This document shows positions 17,719 to 25,483 of a stretch of 26,783 bases of DNA, piece by piece; the first letter of the stretch is position 1; each line of letters starts with the position of its first letter. The stretch is from NCBI GenBank assembly GCA_041484155.1, contig JBGPHB010000001.1:1-26783 (forward strand). The letters run 5' to 3'. A program made the translations under genes and the position numbers. The stretch is from Bryobacteraceae bacterium. GTDB taxonomy: Bacteria; Acidobacteriota; Terriglobia; Bryobacterales; Bryobacteraceae. The notes under the pieces were generated by a model, which was not told the origin of the DNA, ran no database searches, and saw only the letters and a program-made list of their open reading frames with translations.

Positions 17719-17729
17719 CACTATATCAC
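17719..17729 (-). promoter_or_regulatory. Candidate extended -10 promoter GTGATATAGTG (copy 2), overlapping the cca stop codon
   Basis: Identical to 16002-16012 and about 30 nt upstream of ATG 17688. Confidence 0.5.
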
Positions 17730-19138
17730 TTCGCCTGCCTGGCCATATAGCCTTGCAGCCATTTCAAAGCTTCGTCGCCGGTAGAGAAGACGCCGTCCGC
17801 TTGAGCCTCATAGGCCGCGTCCGTCACTTCGCCGATATGCTTGCCCGGTCGATTCTCGAAATACGGAAGCACGTGCCGGCCGAGGATCAGCGGGGCTTGC
17901 GGCTGGTGATCGACGGACTGCGCATTGGCCATGTCCCGGATGCGCGCCGCTGCTTCGGGCAAACCGGGGGGACGCGGCGGGCGGCCGGAGGCGTCGGCTT
18001 CGATCAGGTGTACCAATTGTCCGATGCTCGCGGGGGCCAGGCGGACCGCCAACCGGCGGACGGTCCGGGGCGTCACGTCGGCGCCGATGCTCGAGTGGGC
18101 CAAATGGTTCTCGACGAGGGGAACCACCTGATCGACGATCGCGCTCTTGATGCCGATTCGTTCCAGGAACTGGCGCGCCAGAGGACCGCCGGCGGGCTCG
18201 TGACCATAGGCTGTCCAGCGCAGCAAACCCTCTTTCTCGCGCAGTTCCGTGGTGCCGGCCTTTGCAAAGTCGTGAGTAAGCGCGGCGAACAGCAGTACGG
18301 CGCGAGGATCGCCTTCGAGGCCGTCGCGTTGCGCAATCGCCGCAGCCGCGTTGACCACGTGCATCGTATGGATGCCGACGTCGCCCTCGGGATGCCATTC
18401 CGGGTCTTGCGGCACGCCGAGGATGCGCTCTAGCTCCGGGAAATGGACCATCCAGCCGGTTTCAGTCAGGTATCCGGCGATGCGCCCGGGCCGCGGGCCT
18501 TTCACGGCCCATTTCATGAACTCCTCGGCAATGCGCTCTTTGGGAAGCGTCGAGTATTGTTCGGCAATACACCGGCACATGCCGGCAGTCGCGGGATCGA
18601 GCGTGAGATCGAAGCGGCAAACGAACTGCATCCCGCGCAGCACCCGTAGCGGGTCTTCGCGGAAAGCTTCGCTGGTGGCGCGCAAGACACGGTTTTGAAG
18701 ATCCTCGCGGCCGCCGAAGAAGTCCAGAAGCTCATCCGTCAGGGGATCGAAGGCGAGAGCGTTGATCGTGAAGTCGCGACGGCTGGCGGCCTCGCGCGGA
18801 GTAATGGTTTCGTCGAAGGTGGAGAGAAAATCGCGGTGACCCGAGCCAATCTTGCTATCTCGTCGCGGCACGCTCAGGTGGCAGGTTTCGCCGGACGCAG
18901 TGAAATTGACGACGCCAAAACTCTTGCCTACCAGGTCGATTCGTCCGTACCTCGCCAGGAAATCGGCTAAGCGATCGTAGCCAATGCCGTAGACCTCGAT
19001 ATCGACGTCCTTTGCATCGATCCCCAGCAGGGCGTCGCGGATCGCTCCGCCCACCACCAGGGCACGGAAACCCTCGGTGCGCAGATCGCGCACGATGTTG
19101 TGCAGCGCGGGTGACAGCGAAAGATTCATCCTCTTCAT
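17726..19138 (-). CDS. cca: Class II tRNA nucleotidyltransferase (CCA-adding/poly(A)-polymerase family) with HD domain
   Basis: VVGGAIRDALLG, KDVDIEV (DxD), RRDFTINAL, EDPLRVLRG, ERIAEEF, WHPEGDVGIH and THDFAK (HD). Real start probably ATG 19138 or 19129. The extension to 19324 is a pseudogene remnant. Confidence 0.9.
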   Translation of the reverse strand: MKRMNLSLSPALHNIVRDLRTEGFRALVVGGAIRDALLGIDAKDVDIEVYGIGYDRLADFLARYGRIDLVGKSFGVVNFTASGETCHLSVPRRDSKIGSGHRDFLSTFDETITPREAASRRDFTINALAFDPLTDELLDFFGGREDLQNRVLRATSEAFREDPLRVLRGMQFVCRFDLTLDPATAGMCRCIAEQYSTLPKERIAEEFMKWAVKGPRPGRIAGYLTETGWMVHFPELERILGVPQDPEWHPEGDVGIHTMHVVNAAAAIAQRDGLEGDPRAVLLFAALTHDFAKAGTTELREKEGLLRWTAYGHEPAGGPLARQFLERIGIKSAIVDQVVPLVENHLAHSSIGADVTPRTVRRLAVRLAPASIGQLVHLIEADASGRPPRPPGLPEAAARIRDMANAQSVDHQPQAPLILGRHVLPYFENRPGKHIGEVTDAAYEAQADGVFSTGDEALKWLQGYMARQAK

Positions 19139-19172
19139 TGTCACAAGTCTAAGCACTACTTCAGTCGTACAG

Positions 19173-19370
19173 TTATTCATCCTGTAATACTTGCATCGGA
19201 TCCACGCGGGGACGAGCGAAGCCGCGGCGGCGACAACCAGCACGATCAGGACTACGGTTGACAGTGTCGTCGCGTCGGATGGCGACACGCCGTAAAGCAT
19301 CCCGGACAGTGCTTTGGTGAACACTGCCGCGAGACCCAGGCCGGCGACACAGCAGTGCCGATACCGAACC
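19173..19370 (-). pseudogene. 3' relic of an ADOP/MacB-like ABC permease gene
   Basis: One frame reads CVAGLGLAAVFTKALSGMLYGVSPSDATTLSTVVLIVLVVAAAASLVPA. A shifted frame gives RVDPMQVLQDE* (TAA 19173-19175). This is the typical C-terminus of acidobacterial duplicated orphan permeases, here with frameshifts and no upstream body. Confidence 0.8.
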
Positions 19371-19417: not shown

Positions 19418-19434
19418 CTTATAGTTTCTTTACG
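19418..19434 (+). promoter_or_regulatory. Candidate KdpE binding box
   Basis: CTTATA-GTTTC-TTTACG against the E. coli kdpF operator TTTATA-CTTTT-TTTACA: 5/6 and 5/6 half-site identity with the same 5-nt spacer. It lies directly upstream of the operon that encodes KdpE. Confidence 0.65.
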
Positions 19435-19486
19435 CCTTTGCCGCGGATCTTGATAAAGCTCTAAGGGCGTTTTCCTTAGCCTGATA

Positions 19487-19987
19487 TTGGTGCGTAAGAG
19501 TCAAGTCTGGGAGGGCCATGACCGGCCTGCTGAGGGGGCTTCGTCCGAGGGCTGCCCGAAACTCGAGGTCCACGTTATTTTTACAAACATGGCGGGCACA
19601 CAGGCCACGCTGAAAGCGGCCACCGCCCTGGCGCACGATCTTGGCGCACGCATCACCATCCTGGTCGCGCAGGTCGTGCCTTATCCTTTGGACCTGCGCT
19701 GCCCGCCGGTTCCCGTCGAGTTTACCGAGCAGGCGCTCTGTACGATGGCGGCTGACCAGGACGTCGAGACCACCATTAAGTTGTATCTTTGCCGGGATCG
19801 ACAGCGGACCGTCCGTCAGGCGCTCAAGCCGGACTCAATGGTGGTGATCGAAGGACGGCAGGGTTGGTGGCCTACCGCCGATAAGAGATTGGCGAGGATG
19901 CTACGGCGGGACGGGCATCACGTGATGATCGTCGATCCGCGGGAGCCCTCTCCCGTCGAAGCCGCTCTGGAGAAGGTTGAGCAGTGA
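19487..19987 (+). CDS. Hypothetical protein with a universal-stress-protein-like pattern
   Basis: VHVIFT...TQATLKAATALAHDLGARITILVAQVVP...VRQALKPDSMVVI fits a USP-like alpha/beta arrangement. GTGA overlap with the next gene. Start uncertain. Confidence 0.55.
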   Translation: MVRKSQVWEGHDRPAEGASSEGCPKLEVHVIFTNMAGTQATLKAATALAHDLGARITILVAQVVPYPLDLRCPPVPVEFTEQALCTMAADQDVETTIKLYLCRDRQRTVRQALKPDSMVVIEGRQGWWPTADKRLARMLRRDGHHVMIVDPREPSPVEAALEKVEQ

Positions 19988-22191
19988 ACACGCAAGCCAC
20001 AACCACCAAAGTAGTGGTGGCCACCACCGTGGCCCTCTCGTTCATCTCCTTTTGGCAGGCCGCCGCGGTGGTGCTGAACGACATCGCGTCCACCATGTAT
20101 TACATCGGTGGAATCACCGAACAAGCCATCGGCAAGTCCGCCCCGTGGATGGTGCTGGCGGTCATGCTGTTCAGCTACGCGGTCCGCTCCGTATACATGG
20201 AGAGCTGCGGCATGTTCGTTCGGGGCGGGGTTTACGTGGTGGTACGGGACAGCATCGGGCCGACGGTTGCGAAGCTCTCCGTTTCCGCTCTGGTGGTGGA
20301 CTATATTCTCACCGGTCCCATCAGCGTGGTCAGCGCGGGCCTGTACCTGGGAAGTCTGCTGAACGATCTGAGCGAGACGATGCATCAGGGCTGGCGCACG
20401 AATCCAACTTCTTTCGCGGTATTTTTCAGCGTCGCGATCACCGTGTACTTCTGGTGGAGCAATATCAAGGGCGTCCCGGAATCCAGCCACAAGGCGCTTC
20501 GGATCATGCAGATCACAACCGTGATGGTGGTCGCGCTTCTCATCTGGTGCCCGCTTACGCTGCTGCTGCGGGGAAACGTGCAGCTCCCTCCCTTACCGAC
20601 ACCCTCCAACCTGCACCTGACCAGCGAATCCCTGGGATGGTTGAACGGAACTTTCTTCGCGCAGATATCATTTGTCGTGATCCTGGTGGCGGCCGGCCAC
20701 TCCCTGCTGGCGATGAGCGGCTTTGAAACGCTGGCTCAGGTGTATCGCGAACTGGGCTATCCCAAGCTCAAGAACCTTCGGATCACGGCGAACATCGTAT
20801 GCACGTATTGTGTGATCTGCACTGGAGTGATCTCCATCCTGGCGGTCATGATCATTCCCGACGCGACGCGCAGCATGTATTACGACAACATGATCGGCGG
20901 CTTGGTCATGAATCTGGCGGGCCCCACGCTGTTGAAGTTGGGATTTCATGTCTTTGTCGTAATTGTCGGCGTGATGATTCTGGCCGGCGCCGTGAACACC
21001 TCTTTGATCGGCGTCAACGGAGTGTTGAATCGCGTCGCGGAAGACGGCGTTCTGCTGGACTGGTTCCGGAAGCCACACGCTAAATACGGCACCACGTCCC
21101 GCATCCTCACCCTGATGGCCTTGCTGCAGATCGCGACCATCATTGGCAGCAGAGGGGACATGCTGCTGCTGGGCGAAGCGTATGCCTTCGGGGTCGTATG
21201 GAGCTTCGCGCTCAAAGCGCTGGGCGTCCTGGTTCTGCGGTATCAGCGCCACGATCAGGAATACAAGGTCCCGCTGAACCTAACCATCGGCGGTAAGGAA
21301 ATACCGGTTGGCCTGGCGGCGACCACGCTGGTGCTGTTTCTGGTGGCGATCGCCAATCTGTTTTCTAAGAGGGTCGCCACCATCTATGGCGTCTCCTTTA
21401 CGGTGGTACTGTACATCCTGTTCCTGATTTCCGAGCGCGTCAACGCCAGCAAGAAGCGTGAGAAAAGATCTGATTTGGAGAAATTCAACCTCGAGCACCA
21501 GTCGCAAGTAACCGCGGAGACGCTCCAGGCGCGCCCTGGGTGCGTTCTGGCGGCGGTCCGCGATTACCACCGCATGTGGCACTTGGGGAAAGTTCTGGAG
21601 AAGACGAATCTGCGCCGCCACGATATTGTGGTGATGACGGTCCGTCCCATTTCCGCCGGCGCCGCGGAGTATGACCTGCGCGACGACCAGCTCTTCGCCG
21701 GTTATGAGCAGGAATTGTTCTCGCACGTGGTGTCGATGGCGGAAAAGGAGGGCAAGCGAGTCGAGTTGCTGGTGGTGCCGGCCGTCGATCCGTTCGATGC
21801 GATGGTGCAGACAGCCGCTACACTGCAGGCTTCCCGGCTGGTCGCCGGAGTCTCGGCGCGCATGACTTCGGACGAATTGGCGCGCCGCATCGGTTTGGCC
21901 TGGGAACGGTTACCGGAACCGCGGCATCCTTTTTCATTGGAAGTGATGAGCCCCGACCGCCCCTCGGAGTTCGTGAACCTCGGCCCGCACCCGCCACGCC
22001 TTTGGCCGGAAGATGTGGACCGGCTCCACAGGATTTGGCTGCGGATGTCCGAACAACAAGGGCTCGGCTCAAAGCTGCACCACCGGGATGTTGTGGGAGT
22101 AGCGTTACAACGTTTGGAAGAGGAGCTCGACGGCGGCAGGCAAGACGAGATTCTGGGAGCAGCGGAAAATGCAGTTCAAAAGCACGACTGA
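19984..22191 (+). CDS. APC-fold transporter, KimA/YdaO (KUP)-like candidate K+ importer with a cytoplasmic C-terminal domain
   Basis: About 12 hydrophobic segments. Motifs LNDIASTMYY, VVDYILTGPISVVSAG and AMSGFETLAQ align with the KimA motifs SDALSSVAY, VDYILTVAVS and LTGVEAIS. About 250-aa soluble C-terminus. Confidence 0.75.
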   Translation: MNTQATTTKVVVATTVALSFISFWQAAAVVLNDIASTMYYIGGITEQAIGKSAPWMVLAVMLFSYAVRSVYMESCGMFVRGGVYVVVRDSIGPTVAKLSVSALVVDYILTGPISVVSAGLYLGSLLNDLSETMHQGWRTNPTSFAVFFSVAITVYFWWSNIKGVPESSHKALRIMQITTVMVVALLIWCPLTLLLRGNVQLPPLPTPSNLHLTSESLGWLNGTFFAQISFVVILVAAGHSLLAMSGFETLAQVYRELGYPKLKNLRITANIVCTYCVICTGVISILAVMIIPDATRSMYYDNMIGGLVMNLAGPTLLKLGFHVFVVIVGVMILAGAVNTSLIGVNGVLNRVAEDGVLLDWFRKPHAKYGTTSRILTLMALLQIATIIGSRGDMLLLGEAYAFGVVWSFALKALGVLVLRYQRHDQEYKVPLNLTIGGKEIPVGLAATTLVLFLVAIANLFSKRVATIYGVSFTVVLYILFLISERVNASKKREKRSDLEKFNLEHQSQVTAETLQARPGCVLAAVRDYHRMWHLGKVLEKTNLRRHDIVVMTVRPISAGAAEYDLRDDQLFAGYEQELFSHVVSMAEKEGKRVELLVVPAVDPFDAMVQTAATLQASRLVAGVSARMTSDELARRIGLAWERLPEPRHPFSLEVMSPDRPSEFVNLGPHPPRLWPEDVDRLHRIWLRMSEQQGLGSKLHHRDVVGVALQRLEEELDGGRQDEILGAAENAVQKHD

Positions 22192-22205
22192 CCCATAATG
22201 ATAGT

Positions 22206-23702
22206 GTGACGTTCCAGCCGAACGAGCACCCGCGCGAGTTTGCTCTGTCGGGCGTCATCATCGGGACCTCGACGCTGGTGGCCTTGATCCTGCGTCCTTA
22301 CCTGGTCCCGACCAACCTGGTGGTGCTGTATTTGCTCGGTGTGGTGGCGGTCGCGATGCGCTGTAGCCGGCGAGTCGCGGTCGCCGCCTCGTTTCTCAGC
22401 GTGGCTGCGTTCGACTTTTTCTGTGTTCCGCCGTATCTGACATTCCGGGTCGCGGATTACGAATATTTGATTACCTTCGCGGGGATGCTGGTGGTGGCGC
22501 TGGTCATCAGCACCCAGACCGCAAGAATCCGCATGCAGGCGGCGAACGCGGTCGATAGTGAGGCGAGGACCGAAACTCTGTACCGCCTGTCCCGCAGGCT
22601 GGCGGGACAGACCCGCGTCTTCGATGTGGCAAGGACCGCGGCGGAATGCGCCGAAGAAGTGTTTCAGGTGCCCGTGGTAATTTTTCTCCCCGACGAAGGC
22701 AAGATTACTTTCCGGCGTCGCACCTCCGATCACCTGCCCATCTCCACGGCGGAGGAGGCCGCCGCTCAGTGGGTGTTCGATCATGGCCAGAAGGCTGGAA
22801 AAGGCTCGGACGCGTTTTCCGACGCAGCCGCTGTTTATCTCCCTTTGCGCAGCGCGCGCAAGACTGTGGGCGTCATGGGTGTTCTCCCCGATTCCAACCG
22901 CGATGTATTTTTCCTAGAGCACAAGAATCTCCTGGAGGCGTACGCAAGCCAGACTGCCCTGGCCATCGAACGGACTCTTAGCCAGCACGCTGCCGAAGAG
23001 ACCCGCATCCAGATGCAGACCGAGCAGATGCGCAGCTCCCTTCTGAGCGCGGTTTCCCACGATCTTCGGACCCCGCTCGCATCCATCACGGGCGCCGCCT
23101 CCACACTCCATTCGCAGGGCGAGAGACTGCCGCCCGAAACCCGCGGGGACCTGCTGGACAGTATCTCCGAGGAAGCGGAGCGGCTTGGCCGGTTAGTGGG
23201 CAACCTTCTCGAGATGACCAGATTCGAGTCGGGCGGTGTCGAGCTGCGCCGGGACCTATATCCTCTGGAGGAAATCGTCGGCGCGGCGCTCCAGCGGATG
23301 GAGCCTCAACTGGTGGGACGACCGGTGACGACACTGCTGCCCGACAGCCTGCCACTCGTCTCAGTGGATGACGTGCTCCTGGGACAGGTGGTGGTGAATC
23401 TCCTGGAGAATGCCGTCAAGTACAGCCCGCCGGGGACGCCCGTGGAAGTGGCGGCCGAAGCCGAAGAGGGCGGCGTCACGCTGGAGGTTCGAGATCGCGG
23501 TCCCGGCTTCGCTCCGGGTGAGGAGCAGCGCGTCTTTGAAAAGTTCTATCGCGGGAGACCGGAGGGCGTGCGCGGCGCCGGTCTCGGTCTCGCGATCTGC
23601 CGTGCGATCGTGGAGGCTCACGGGGGAACCATCGAGGCCTTCAACCGGGCGGGAGGGGGAGCGGTCCTCAGGATCCGCCTGCCCTTGGAAACGCAGCGAT
23701 GA
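22206..23702 (+). CDS. kdpD: Short KdpD-type sensor histidine kinase (DUF4118 four-TM domain, GAF, HisKA, HATPase), lacking the N-terminal KdpD and USP domains
   Basis: SFLSVAAFDFFCVPPYLTF, LLSAVSHDLRTPLASITG, NLLENAVKYS, DRGPG and GAGLGLAIC. Start taken at GTG 22206, just after the upstream stop. Confidence 0.85.
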   Translation: MTFQPNEHPREFALSGVIIGTSTLVALILRPYLVPTNLVVLYLLGVVAVAMRCSRRVAVAASFLSVAAFDFFCVPPYLTFRVADYEYLITFAGMLVVALVISTQTARIRMQAANAVDSEARTETLYRLSRRLAGQTRVFDVARTAAECAEEVFQVPVVIFLPDEGKITFRRRTSDHLPISTAEEAAAQWVFDHGQKAGKGSDAFSDAAAVYLPLRSARKTVGVMGVLPDSNRDVFFLEHKNLLEAYASQTALAIERTLSQHAAEETRIQMQTEQMRSSLLSAVSHDLRTPLASITGAASTLHSQGERLPPETRGDLLDSISEEAERLGRLVGNLLEMTRFESGGVELRRDLYPLEEIVGAALQRMEPQLVGRPVTTLLPDSLPLVSVDDVLLGQVVVNLLENAVKYSPPGTPVEVAAEAEEGGVTLEVRDRGPGFAPGEEQRVFEKFYRGRPEGVRGAGLGLAICRAIVEAHGGTIEAFNRAGGGAVLRIRLPLETQR

Positions 23703-24391
23703 AGACACTGATCCTGGTGATCGAGGATGATTCCCAAATCCGGCGATTCCTGCGCGCGACGCTCGCCGCGGAAGGCTACCAGTTTCATGAGGCCGTCACC
23801 GCCGGGGAGGGCGTTGCCCAGGCCGCGGCGCGGCAGCCTGACTTGATCCTGCTTGACCTCGGCCTCCCGGATCGCGACGGACTCGAAGTCATCCGCCGGG
23901 TGCGCGAATGGAGCCAGACGCCGATCGTGGTGGTTTCCGCCCGCGGACAGGAGAAAGATAAGATCGCCGCGCTCGACCTGGGCGCCGACGACTACGTCGC
24001 CAAGCCGTTCGCGGTCGGCGAGTTGCTGGCGCGGATCCGTGCCGCGCTTCGCCGGTCAGCCGCGATCGGCCAGGATGGCGCCGGTGCCGTATTCCACTTC
24101 GGTCGCGTCGAGGCGGACCTGGACAAGCGCATCGTCAAGGTGGATGGCCAGGAGGTCCATCTCACACCGAACGAGTACAAGCTCCTCCTGGTGCTGATCA
24201 AACATGCGGGAAAGGTACTGACGCAGCGCCAGCTCCTGAACGAAGTCTGGGGGCCGAACCATATCGAACAAGCCCAATACCTCAGAGTCTACGTCGCCCA
24301 ACTCCGGCGAAAGCTAGAGCGCGACCCCGCACGGCCAAAACACTTGCAGACGGAGCCGGGCGTCGGCTATCGTCTGGTGGTTGAAGGGTAG
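23699..24391 (+). CDS. kdpE: KdpE response regulator (OmpR family)
   Basis: ILVIEDDSQIRRFL, PDLILLDLGLPDRDG, ALDLGADDYVAKPF, HLTPNEYKLL, LLNEVWGP, YLRVYVAQLRRKLE and TEPGVGYRL. ATGA overlap with kdpD. Confidence 0.93.
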   Translation: MKTLILVIEDDSQIRRFLRATLAAEGYQFHEAVTAGEGVAQAAARQPDLILLDLGLPDRDGLEVIRRVREWSQTPIVVVSARGQEKDKIAALDLGADDYVAKPFAVGELLARIRAALRRSAAIGQDGAGAVFHFGRVEADLDKRIVKVDGQEVHLTPNEYKLLLVLIKHAGKVLTQRQLLNEVWGPNHIEQAQYLRVYVAQLRRKLERDPARPKHLQTEPGVGYRLVVEG

Positions 24392-24409: not shown

Positions 24410-25483
24410 CTAGAACTTGGCACGCAAAAGTTCGAACTTGTCCAGCGTGCTGCCGTCGATCCCGATGGCTTCAACGCGAATGGTCTCGCCATCCACCGTC
24501 ACGCTGACGAAGTTCTCGATGCTGACCACCCTTTGAGTGATTCCCGGGGGCGGTTTATCTACGTCGTAGAGAGGAGCGCCGCCACCTCCGGTCACCACAT
24601 AGTGGATACCGTTCTTCAAATAGTGCTGGTAGTTGTGATCGTGACCGAAGAATCCAATCGTCACGTGATACTTTTCGAACAGCGGCACCAGCGCCGTCAT
24701 GTGCGGGTTGTCACCTTGCCGCCGGGCGACCGCGGTGTAGGGCGGGTGATGCGCAGTCACGAACCGGTAATCGGCGCCCTGGTGAGCTTGCAGATCCTCT
24801 TCCAGCCAGCGGGTCTGCTCGGCCCAAAACGCTGCTTTCTCCCGTTTGTTACGGGACACATTCTCGATGTCGCTGTTGATCACGATAAAGTGGCCGTTGC
24901 CCCAGTCAAATGAGTAGTACGCGGTGGTGGCCTGGAAGAACTCGTAGAAATCGCGGCTGTTGCGTTCATGATTCCCCAAAGCCGGGAAGAACGCGGTCTG
25001 CCTGAGAAGCTCCTTCTCGATGTCAAAGAAGATGGGCCACAGAGAGCTGTCGTTTCCGTTGGCGACCAGATCCCCCGTTTGGAGCACAAAATCCGGGATC
25101 CCATGTTTGACCAGCGTATCCATGACGCGGCGGTGCACGTCGTGACGCGTGCGATTGTCGCCGTACACCACGAAGTTGTAGGGTTCTGCTTTTGTGGGTG
25201 GTGTTTTGAAAGATCCCTTCCCGGCGTCCTGGCCGGCGACCTGATATTCGTACCGCGTATTCGGCTCCAGCCCGGTGAGAGTCGTCTTCTCTACGCGGAG
25301 GGATGGCGACTTGCGCGCGGCGGCTCCTCCGGCCGGCTGGACCGTCGCTTCGTCGCTTTGCACGATCCACACGACGGTGGCGCTATTGGAGGTCACCTGC
25401 GGGACCAACGGGCCGCCCGCGATCTTATCGGCAGCCGCGAGAGTAGCGGCACCGCCCAGAACCAAACACAACAGTTTCTTCAT
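24410..25483 (-). CDS. Secreted purple-acid-phosphatase-like metallophosphoesterase with an N-terminal FN3-like domain
   Basis: Signal peptide MKKLLCLVLGGAATLAAA. Motifs YGDNR, TGDLV, LGNHE, AHHPPY and GHDHNY. Confidence 0.9.
   Translation of the reverse strand: MKKLLCLVLGGAATLAAADKIAGGPLVPQVTSNSATVVWIVQSDEATVQPAGGAAARKSPSLRVEKTTLTGLEPNTRYEYQVAGQDAGKGSFKTPPTKAEPYNFVVYGDNRTRHDVHRRVMDTLVKHGIPDFVLQTGDLVANGNDSSLWPIFFDIEKELLRQTAFFPALGNHERNSRDFYEFFQATTAYYSFDWGNGHFIVINSDIENVSRNKREKAAFWAEQTRWLEEDLQAHQGADYRFVTAHHPPYTAVARRQGDNPHMTALVPLFEKYHVTIGFFGHDHNYQHYLKNGIHYVVTGGGGAPLYDVDKPPPGITQRVVSIENFVSVTVDGETIRVEAIGIDGSTLDKFELLRAKF

Follow-up and report, generated by a model that had tools for sequence, protein, structure and literature searches.

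A KimA-like carrier, the kinase half of KdpD and KdpE are encoded together behind a KdpE-type promoter box in the genome of a Bryobacteraceae bacterium, a soil acidobacterium of the order Bryobacterales represented by a metagenome-assembled genome (MAG) that is 67% complete and consists of 930 contigs. The locus lies on contig JBGPHB010000001.1 (assembly GCA_041484155.1), of which positions 1 to 26,783 were analysed; this whole stretch of 26,783 nt is referred to hereafter as the window. On its + strand, the 6-5-6 direct-repeat box CTTATA-GTTTC-TTTACG (19418..19434) is followed by four genes: ORF166, for a small cytoplasmic protein with a predicted universal stress protein (USP) fold (19487/19490..19987), a gene for a 735-aa APC permease (19984..22191), a gene for the C-terminal half of KdpD (22206..23702) and kdpE (23699..24391). 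No kdpFABC genes occur between the box and the regulator genes. This four-gene operon behind its box, with no kdpFABC in between, had been described in an earlier reading of the bare sequence (the sequence-only reading), and all of its elements were recovered here. We consider it most likely, with a probability of roughly 0.7, that the locus is a K+-limitation operon in which a KimA-type K+/H+ importer would be controlled by KdpD-C/KdpE and would act alongside the KdpFABC pump.

Profile, fold and residue comparisons all indicate that the permease is KimA-like. A phmmer search of the PDB with the permease as single query gave no match, and a family profile was required; with a profile of 17 diverse representatives (27-51% identical), hmmsearch ranked KimA (6S3K) first, with E 7.3e-14 as against 6.7e-4 for BasC, the next family, while BLASTP of the permease against KimA gave E 7e-9. 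The Bacillus subtilis KimA sequence was recovered via a 78-residue stretch from the profile alignment, and a KimA family alignment was then built, with which hhalign aligned the permease family over 394 columns from transmembrane helix (TM) 1 to TM12 (98.1% probability, E 6.7e-14). KimA (YdaO) of B. subtilis belongs to the KimA subfamily of KUP and symports K+ and H+ (6S3K, 8B70, 8B71; PMC6994465, PMC10284832); in it, D36, Y43, T121, S125, T230 and Y377 make up the occluded K+ site and gates, D117 belongs to a cytoplasmic K+ site and E233 is the proton-coupling residue (PMC6994465). In the hhalign alignment the residues are paired (permease/KimA) as D33/D36, Y40/Y43, D106/D117, Y107/Y118, T110/T121, S114/S125, S245/T230, E248/E233, T339/T317 and Y400/Y377; all of these KimA residues are retained apart from T230, which is replaced by Ser. 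The equivalences to D36, Y43, D117 and E233 that had been proposed by the sequence-only reading were thus all reproduced. The paired sites other than Y107 are invariant in nine family members down to 39% identity (Y107 changes to M or F), and in more distant members the residues at the KimA sites drift to E, F or L. Given this residue conservation and the analogy with KimA, K+ is the predicted substrate of the permease, and its transport would be coupled to H+.

The AlphaFold2 model of the permease (pLDDT 84) leads to the same family, as the three best Foldseek matches are all KimA. Using VIA-align, model residues 19-660 superpose on KimA residues 22-606 with Z 39-42, the five-stranded cytoplasmic domain included; the ApcT, CAT and LAT carriers superpose only to about residue 490. 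The protein comprises a 12-TM LeuT-fold domain (residues ~20-497), a KimA-type alpha/beta cytoplasmic domain (~520-660) and, after it, a helical extension some 75 residues long that is conserved. No match to Pfam Usp was found in the tail at E up to 10, a tail profile run against the PDB gave just one USP at E 0.1, and an ESM Atlas search with the tail returned unnamed acidobacterial clusters only. The c-di-AMP-binding residues of KimA could not be mapped onto the tail, since its sequence does not align to that of KimA. The C-terminal extension (residues ~660-735, 21964-22188) has an invariant G-P-H-x-P, H, W-L and H across paralogues, and no counterpart to it was found in KimA. A further difference from KimA is that the tunnel residues S320 and Q324 are not kept. 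More than 8000 relatives of the permease were found; those in public databases are all from Bryobacterales/Bryobacteraceae MAGs (Acidobacteriota) and are annotated as 'APC family permease' or 'amino acid transporter', just as the sequence-only reading had expected of automated annotation.

On sequence evidence the response regulator is probably a genuine KdpE, as had been read from the sequence. It scores 298 bits on the NCBIfam KdpE model (NF007820), under the equivalog cut-off of 325 bits, with 197 bits for the next family, and its best PDB matches are Escherichia coli KdpE structures (E 1e-80, the next being 1e-48). In E. coli KdpE, R193, R200 and T215 are required for DNA binding (PMC3264566), and the window regulator retains all three, the two arginines of the recognition helix and the threonine of the wing, in the alignment to 6LGQ/4KNY, where YLRVYVAQLRRKLE stands against YLRIYMGHLRQKLE and TEPGVGYR against TETGIGYR. 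The kinase consists, according to Pfam, of a 4-TM DUF4118 domain followed by GAF, HisKA and HATPase domains. Its match to the KdpD model NF007793 (403 bits) is limited to positions 411-884 of 895, and it therefore corresponds to the C-terminal half of KdpD; neither Pfam nor NCBIfam detected KdpD-N and Usp domains on the same chain.

A class of split KdpD has been described, in which a KdpD/Usp chain acting as atypical serine kinase is separate from a TM/GAF/DHpCA histidine-kinase chain (Silberberg et al. 2024, PMC11018627). Both chains are represented here, as contig C581 of the same assembly ends within a gene (P0005) that encodes the last 44 positions of a KdpD-N domain, then about 150 residues and a stop; no Usp match was detected in this fragment by Pfam at E up to 10. 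Hence the 'short kdpD' of the sequence-only reading does lack the N-terminal domains, but as one half of a split KdpD it belongs to a published class. In relatives, KdpD-N/USP genes of 370-400 aa are usually found as a tandem pair directly after kdpC, so that, as in the published class, the KdpD/Usp chain remains beside kdpFABC. Two features depart from that class: the usual tandem duplication of the KdpD/Usp gene in the window's genus, and the location of the kinase chain and KdpE beside a KimA-like carrier, an arrangement not in PMC11018627. The duplication after kdpC is seen in most genomes of the genus (L040:9706-12003 in relative G012, and loci L024-L027), and the tandem copies are about 31-35% identical to one another.

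The KdpE site of E. coli, TTTATA-N5-TTTACA, is located at -72 to -50 (PMC3264566). When the pattern TTTAYR-N5-TTTAYR was searched with at most one mismatch, two matches were found in the window against 0.14 expected. One is the box at 19418-19434; the other, at 2132-2148 on the - strand (TTTATAAAGACTTAATG), is in the gap between two + strand genes and in the opposite orientation, and is probably a chance match in an AT-rich spacer. The exact sequence of the box was found in the window only when sought in the other loci, the motif being degenerate and read from aligned promoters. In that form, it is conserved at the same position upstream of the ORF166-permease operons of six other Bryobacterales species (G009, G011, G012, G014, L044 and L046), and it also precedes kdpF-kdpA in G011, a basal paralogue of the permease gene in G028, and kdpFABC operons headed by an ORF166-like gene in G012, G014, G006 and G003, the last three with a weaker version of the box. 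A weight matrix was built from ten box sites and used to scan the 1.7 Mb of fetched loci at a threshold of 15 bits. It gave 27 matches, 18 of them in these promoters; the ten training sites and one duplicate locus account for 11 of the 18, leaving about seven promoter matches that are independent of training. The KdpE-type box proposed from the sequence is thus borne out as a conserved site, and its form and conservation predict binding by KdpE.

Downstream, an element 32 nt past the box (TTGATA-AAGCT-CTAAGG, 19450..19466, +) is conserved as TTGAYA-N5-TTWAVG across the aligned promoters, and may represent either a hexamer of the -35 type or another, weaker 6-5-6 site. It is followed by TAGCCT (19477..19482, +), which belongs to a conserved TAnnnT hexamer; at least four orthologous promoters (alignment A6) have this hexamer exactly 7 nt ahead of the GTG/ATG start, and this spacing suggests the -10 of a leaderless transcript. 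With a leaderless start, the box would lie at about -72 to -56, comparable to the position in E. coli. A sigma-70 consensus scan found no promoter. No ydaO c-di-AMP riboswitch was detected in the leader by Rfam at E up to 1, the lone match being a chance radC match inside kdpE; in this the operon differs from that of KimA, a KdpE box served by a two-component system being the predicted means of control.

Among relatives, the operon arrangement of the window is found again in G014, L044 and L046. In G011 a single strand carries, in order, a box, ORF166, the permease gene, a second box, a small ORF, kdpF, kdpA, kdpB, kdpC, full-length kdpD and kdpE, and the C-terminal half of this KdpD, which is fused to a KdpD-N domain, is 69% identical to the window kinase. 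A small hydrophobic ORF of 31 codons and a KdpF-like ORF of 28 codons separate the second box of G011 from kdpA (L028:10090-10200, -). In G009 a permease paralogue, itself followed by kdpD-C and kdpE, is oriented divergently to the ORF166-permease pair. In a tree of 101 members of the permease family, rooted on KimA, the window permease falls within a tight clade of seven, all seven having ORF166 and the box, which makes the link within Bryobacterales for the most part a single event, with G028, L119 and G009 as the few extra cases. Apparent frameshifts were noted in kdpE of G011 (L028:2845-2954) and in the type-A permease gene of G006 (G006:C49:65079-67273), and could be assembly errors or decay. 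A second permease gene in the window's genome, a clade-B paralogue whose product is 70% identical, is located at the start of a contig, so its promoter is missing (G000:C410:2-2101, L041). Two metagenome contigs with distant family members were too short to reveal gene context.

One claim of the sequence-only reading, namely that KdpDE is wired to the carrier instead of to KdpFABC, is not supported. Whether kdpFABC is present elsewhere in the genome has a divided answer: kdpA, kdpB and kdpC were not found in the assembly at its 67% completeness, but the KdpD-N/USP gene cut at the end of C581 is of the type that follows kdpC in relatives. As to how often the operon occurs without the pump, kdpA was found in six of the eight relatives with a type-A permease, and the other two are fragmented assemblies (610 and 680 contigs). 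Moreover, the box and kdpFABC are present together in relatives G011, G012, G014, G006 and G003. Because the assembly is incomplete, the C581 gene is present and kdpA occurs in six of eight such relatives, the carrier is best understood as added to the Kdp regulon, most likely as a second member alongside the pump and not as a replacement for it.

A survey of K+ transporters in 40 relatives, which are not independent of each other, gives a phyletic pattern as would be shown by a main K+ importer, although other K+ routes may exist. In families f1 and f3 (31 genomes) the permease is present in 29 of 31 and TrkH in none, and Kup has no clear match (one borderline match of 25.7 bits, in G003). 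In family f2 (nine genomes, within G025-G040) the permease is absent from all nine, TrkH is present in seven and KdpA in none. TrkH and the KimA-like permease are thus mutually exclusive between sister families of the order. Furthermore, KdpA, Kup and TrkH were not found in G001 (99% complete) and G008 (94% complete), where the only importer detected among those searched was the KimA-like permease.

Taken together, these observations suggest the following scheme. The TM-GAF-DHp/CA half of the split KdpD would sense low K+ and phosphorylate KdpE, and KdpE~P would bind the box at 19418-19434, activating transcription of ORF166, the carrier gene, kdpD-C and kdpE; as the sensor genes are in the same operon, the sensor pair would also induce itself. 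The carrier would couple the import of K+ to that of H+; its occluded site would consist of D33, Y40, T110, S114, S245 and Y400, and E248 would be the proton-coupling residue, as in KimA. The KimA-type tail and the USP-fold ORF166 protein would probably serve post-translational control, possibly through a nucleotide such as c-di-AMP. The organism would most likely also have kdpFABC and separate KdpD-N/USP serine kinases under the same type of box, and the carrier would supplement the pump. What the analysis shows is homology, conserved residues, gene order, conservation of the box and a phyletic distribution; K+ as substrate, KdpE binding, low-K+ induction and the roles given to ORF166 and the tail are predictions.

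Several points weigh against this scheme. The permease is only 15-24% identical to KimA, AA_permease_2 is the sole match that Pfam and NCBIfam detect in it, and hhalign found no significant match of its tail to the KimA tail or to ORF166. Many APC carriers have a glutamate in TM6, which makes this residue less discriminating than the TM1 and TM3 aspartates. Most members of the family (clade B) lack both a box and kdp neighbours, and the weight matrix placed no box ahead of any clade-B permease gene in the tree. The association of the type-A permease with Kdp largely goes back to a single evolutionary event within one clade. The putative promoter elements and the putative leaderless start are read from conservation only. 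Finally, some relatives encode a second sensor pair, HK2/RR2, paralogous to that of the window: HK2 (with DUF4118) is about 30% identical to the window kinase and the OmpR-type RR2 is 45-47% identical to the window KdpE. Their genes lie immediately upstream of a box, an ORF166-like gene and kdpFABC (L127:8315-10292 in G014, L128 in G006, L021 in G038). With this pair present, either regulator may serve a given box, and a weaker form of the 'rewiring' claim may hold. An HK2/RR2-type pair is also found after another KimA-like permease paralogue (L119:10880-13134). No RR2 orthologue was found in the window's genome, which at 67% completeness is uninformative.

In its widest form, the alternative would be that KdpD-C/KdpE have been handed to the KimA-type carrier, with the carrier's tail and the USP-fold protein as the missing input module, and that the pump has been left to the paralogous pair and the KdpD-N serine kinases. 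We regard this as rather unlikely, but if true, the handover would be a modular re-partitioning of Kdp control between two K+ importers. A related proposal, the closest to the rewiring claimed by the sequence-only reading, is that KdpDE is re-dedicated to the carrier while kdpFABC is controlled by HK2/RR2 and, post-translationally, by KdpD-N/USP serine kinases. It would account for the fact that KdpE orthologues (at least 68% identity) follow the type-A permease, being present in seven of the eight relatives with this permease and in none of the others, and not kdpFABC, since 14 relatives have kdpA but no such orthologue; these counts of KdpE orthologues and type-A permeases leave out the unpublished G022, which is included in the per-family tallies above. 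The position of the HK2-RR2 genes in G014, G006 and G038 would fit as well. However, in G011 and G026 the same KdpD/KdpE lineage is found within the kdpFABC operon, with full-length KdpD, the kdp operon of G012 has the box but no adjacent HK2/RR2, the type of box is identical at permease and kdpFABC operons, and RR2 is only weakly KdpE-like (201 bits on KdpE versus 198 on RpaB). The re-dedication is therefore considered improbable.

Another explanation gives a larger role to ORF166. No Pfam match was found for this protein even at E up to 10, but the AlphaFold2 model built from nine homologues (pLDDT 77) has as best Foldseek match the USP domain of Staphylococcus aureus KdpD (7JI4, E 4e-5), followed by further USPs, with TM-scores of 0.5-0.68. 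A USP fold is therefore a reasonable assignment on the strength of the model, and the 'USP-like ORF' of the sequence-only reading finds support in the modelled fold though not in Pfam. By eye, the ATP motif G-2x-G-9x-G(S/T) is incomplete, GRQG being present without the following G-S/T. Homologues of ORF166 head both permease operons and kdpFABC operons in relatives; a second ORF166 was not found in the window's genome, an uninformative result for a 67%-complete assembly. The permease could be mainly a co-sensor (transceptor) for the truncated kinase, its tail and ORF166 replacing the KdpD-N/Usp input and reporting flux or nucleotide status. The kinase does lack cytoplasmic input domains, two USP-type modules are encoded in the two genes upstream of it, ORF166 resembles the USP domain of KdpD itself, and the genome has two diadenylate cyclase genes, so that nucleotide control of USP-type modules is possible. 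Yet a separate gene elsewhere in the genome encodes the KdpD-N/Usp half, ORF166 homologues also head kdpFABC operons without a kinase gene, and the intact K+ site residues suggest real transport, which makes a mainly sensory permease very doubtful. A KdpE-type box and an ORF166-like USP gene also occur at L119:13145-16374, where they are followed by a gene for phosphoenolpyruvate carboxylase, not a transporter.

A permease for amino acids, polyamines or another cation (e.g. NH4+), linked to the K+ sensor only through shared regulation or adjacency, is a highly improbable alternative: the Pfam match of the protein, its public annotation and the superposition of its TM domain on ApcT and CAT (Z 35-37) would agree with such a substrate, but KimA is ten orders of magnitude ahead of any amino-acid carrier in the profile search, the K+ site of KimA is conserved residue for residue, the tail is matched by KimA only, the gene of G011 is embedded in a kdp operon and the distribution of the permease is complementary to that of TrkH.

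The preferred reading, a KimA-type carrier under KdpDE control alongside the pump, would combine parts that are already known in a way that appears to be new. Textbooks present KdpDE as a K+ sensor with a single target, and the only control described for KimA, to our knowledge, is that by c-di-AMP in Firmicutes. In the limited set of literature on links between KdpE, KimA and Kup regulons, no paper on KdpDE control of a KimA-type carrier was found. The permease shares with KimA the 12-TM LeuT fold with its five-stranded alpha/beta cytoplasmic domain, KimA being the best match by both profile and fold, and by analogy with KimA, which is needed at low K+, it may serve under the same condition. 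The likeness to the E. coli KdpDE-kdpFABC system (4KNY/4KFC; PMC3264566) includes the DNA-reading residues of KdpE, the T-rich 6-5-6 repeat, its similar inferred distance to the start and the DUF4118-GAF-DHp/CA core of the kinase. In contrast to E. coli, the box precedes a USP-fold gene and a secondary carrier and not a P-type pump, the kinase of the window lacks KdpD-N/Usp, and the sensor genes are downstream of the carrier in one operon. The cation-chloride cotransporters (NKCC1, NCC, KCC), which follow KimA in Foldseek, also join an APC-fold TM domain to a USP/PPAT-like cytoplasmic domain, but they are eukaryotic Na/K/Cl carriers with much larger tails and without detectable sequence relationship to the permease. 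If the reading is correct, a KimA-type carrier driven by a KdpE box would add an importer powered by protons to the Kdp regulon, and thousands of genes annotated as 'amino-acid permease' in soil Acidobacteriota would gain a likely substrate for their products. The carrier may also be the chief K+ uptake route of the Bryobacterales, which showed no Trk/Ktr or Kup. Moreover, the split KdpD, together with the USP-fold gene that leads both kinds of operon, would offer a natural system for studying how K+ control is divided among a kinase half, a serine-kinase half and USP modules.

At the level of the locus, the permease start overlaps the ORF166 stop (GTGA) and the kdpE start overlaps the stop of the kdpD half (ATGA). 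The kinase ORF opens at 22002, homology begins near 22218, and the sole in-frame start nearby is a GTG at 22206, which is the probable start codon, 14 nt past the permease stop. The 5′ neighbour (17726-19324, -), which is divergent, encodes a PolyA_pol/HD nucleotidyltransferase, and the 3′ neighbour (24410-25483, -), which is convergent, a metallophosphoesterase; the four genes therefore form a self-contained, translationally coupled unit.

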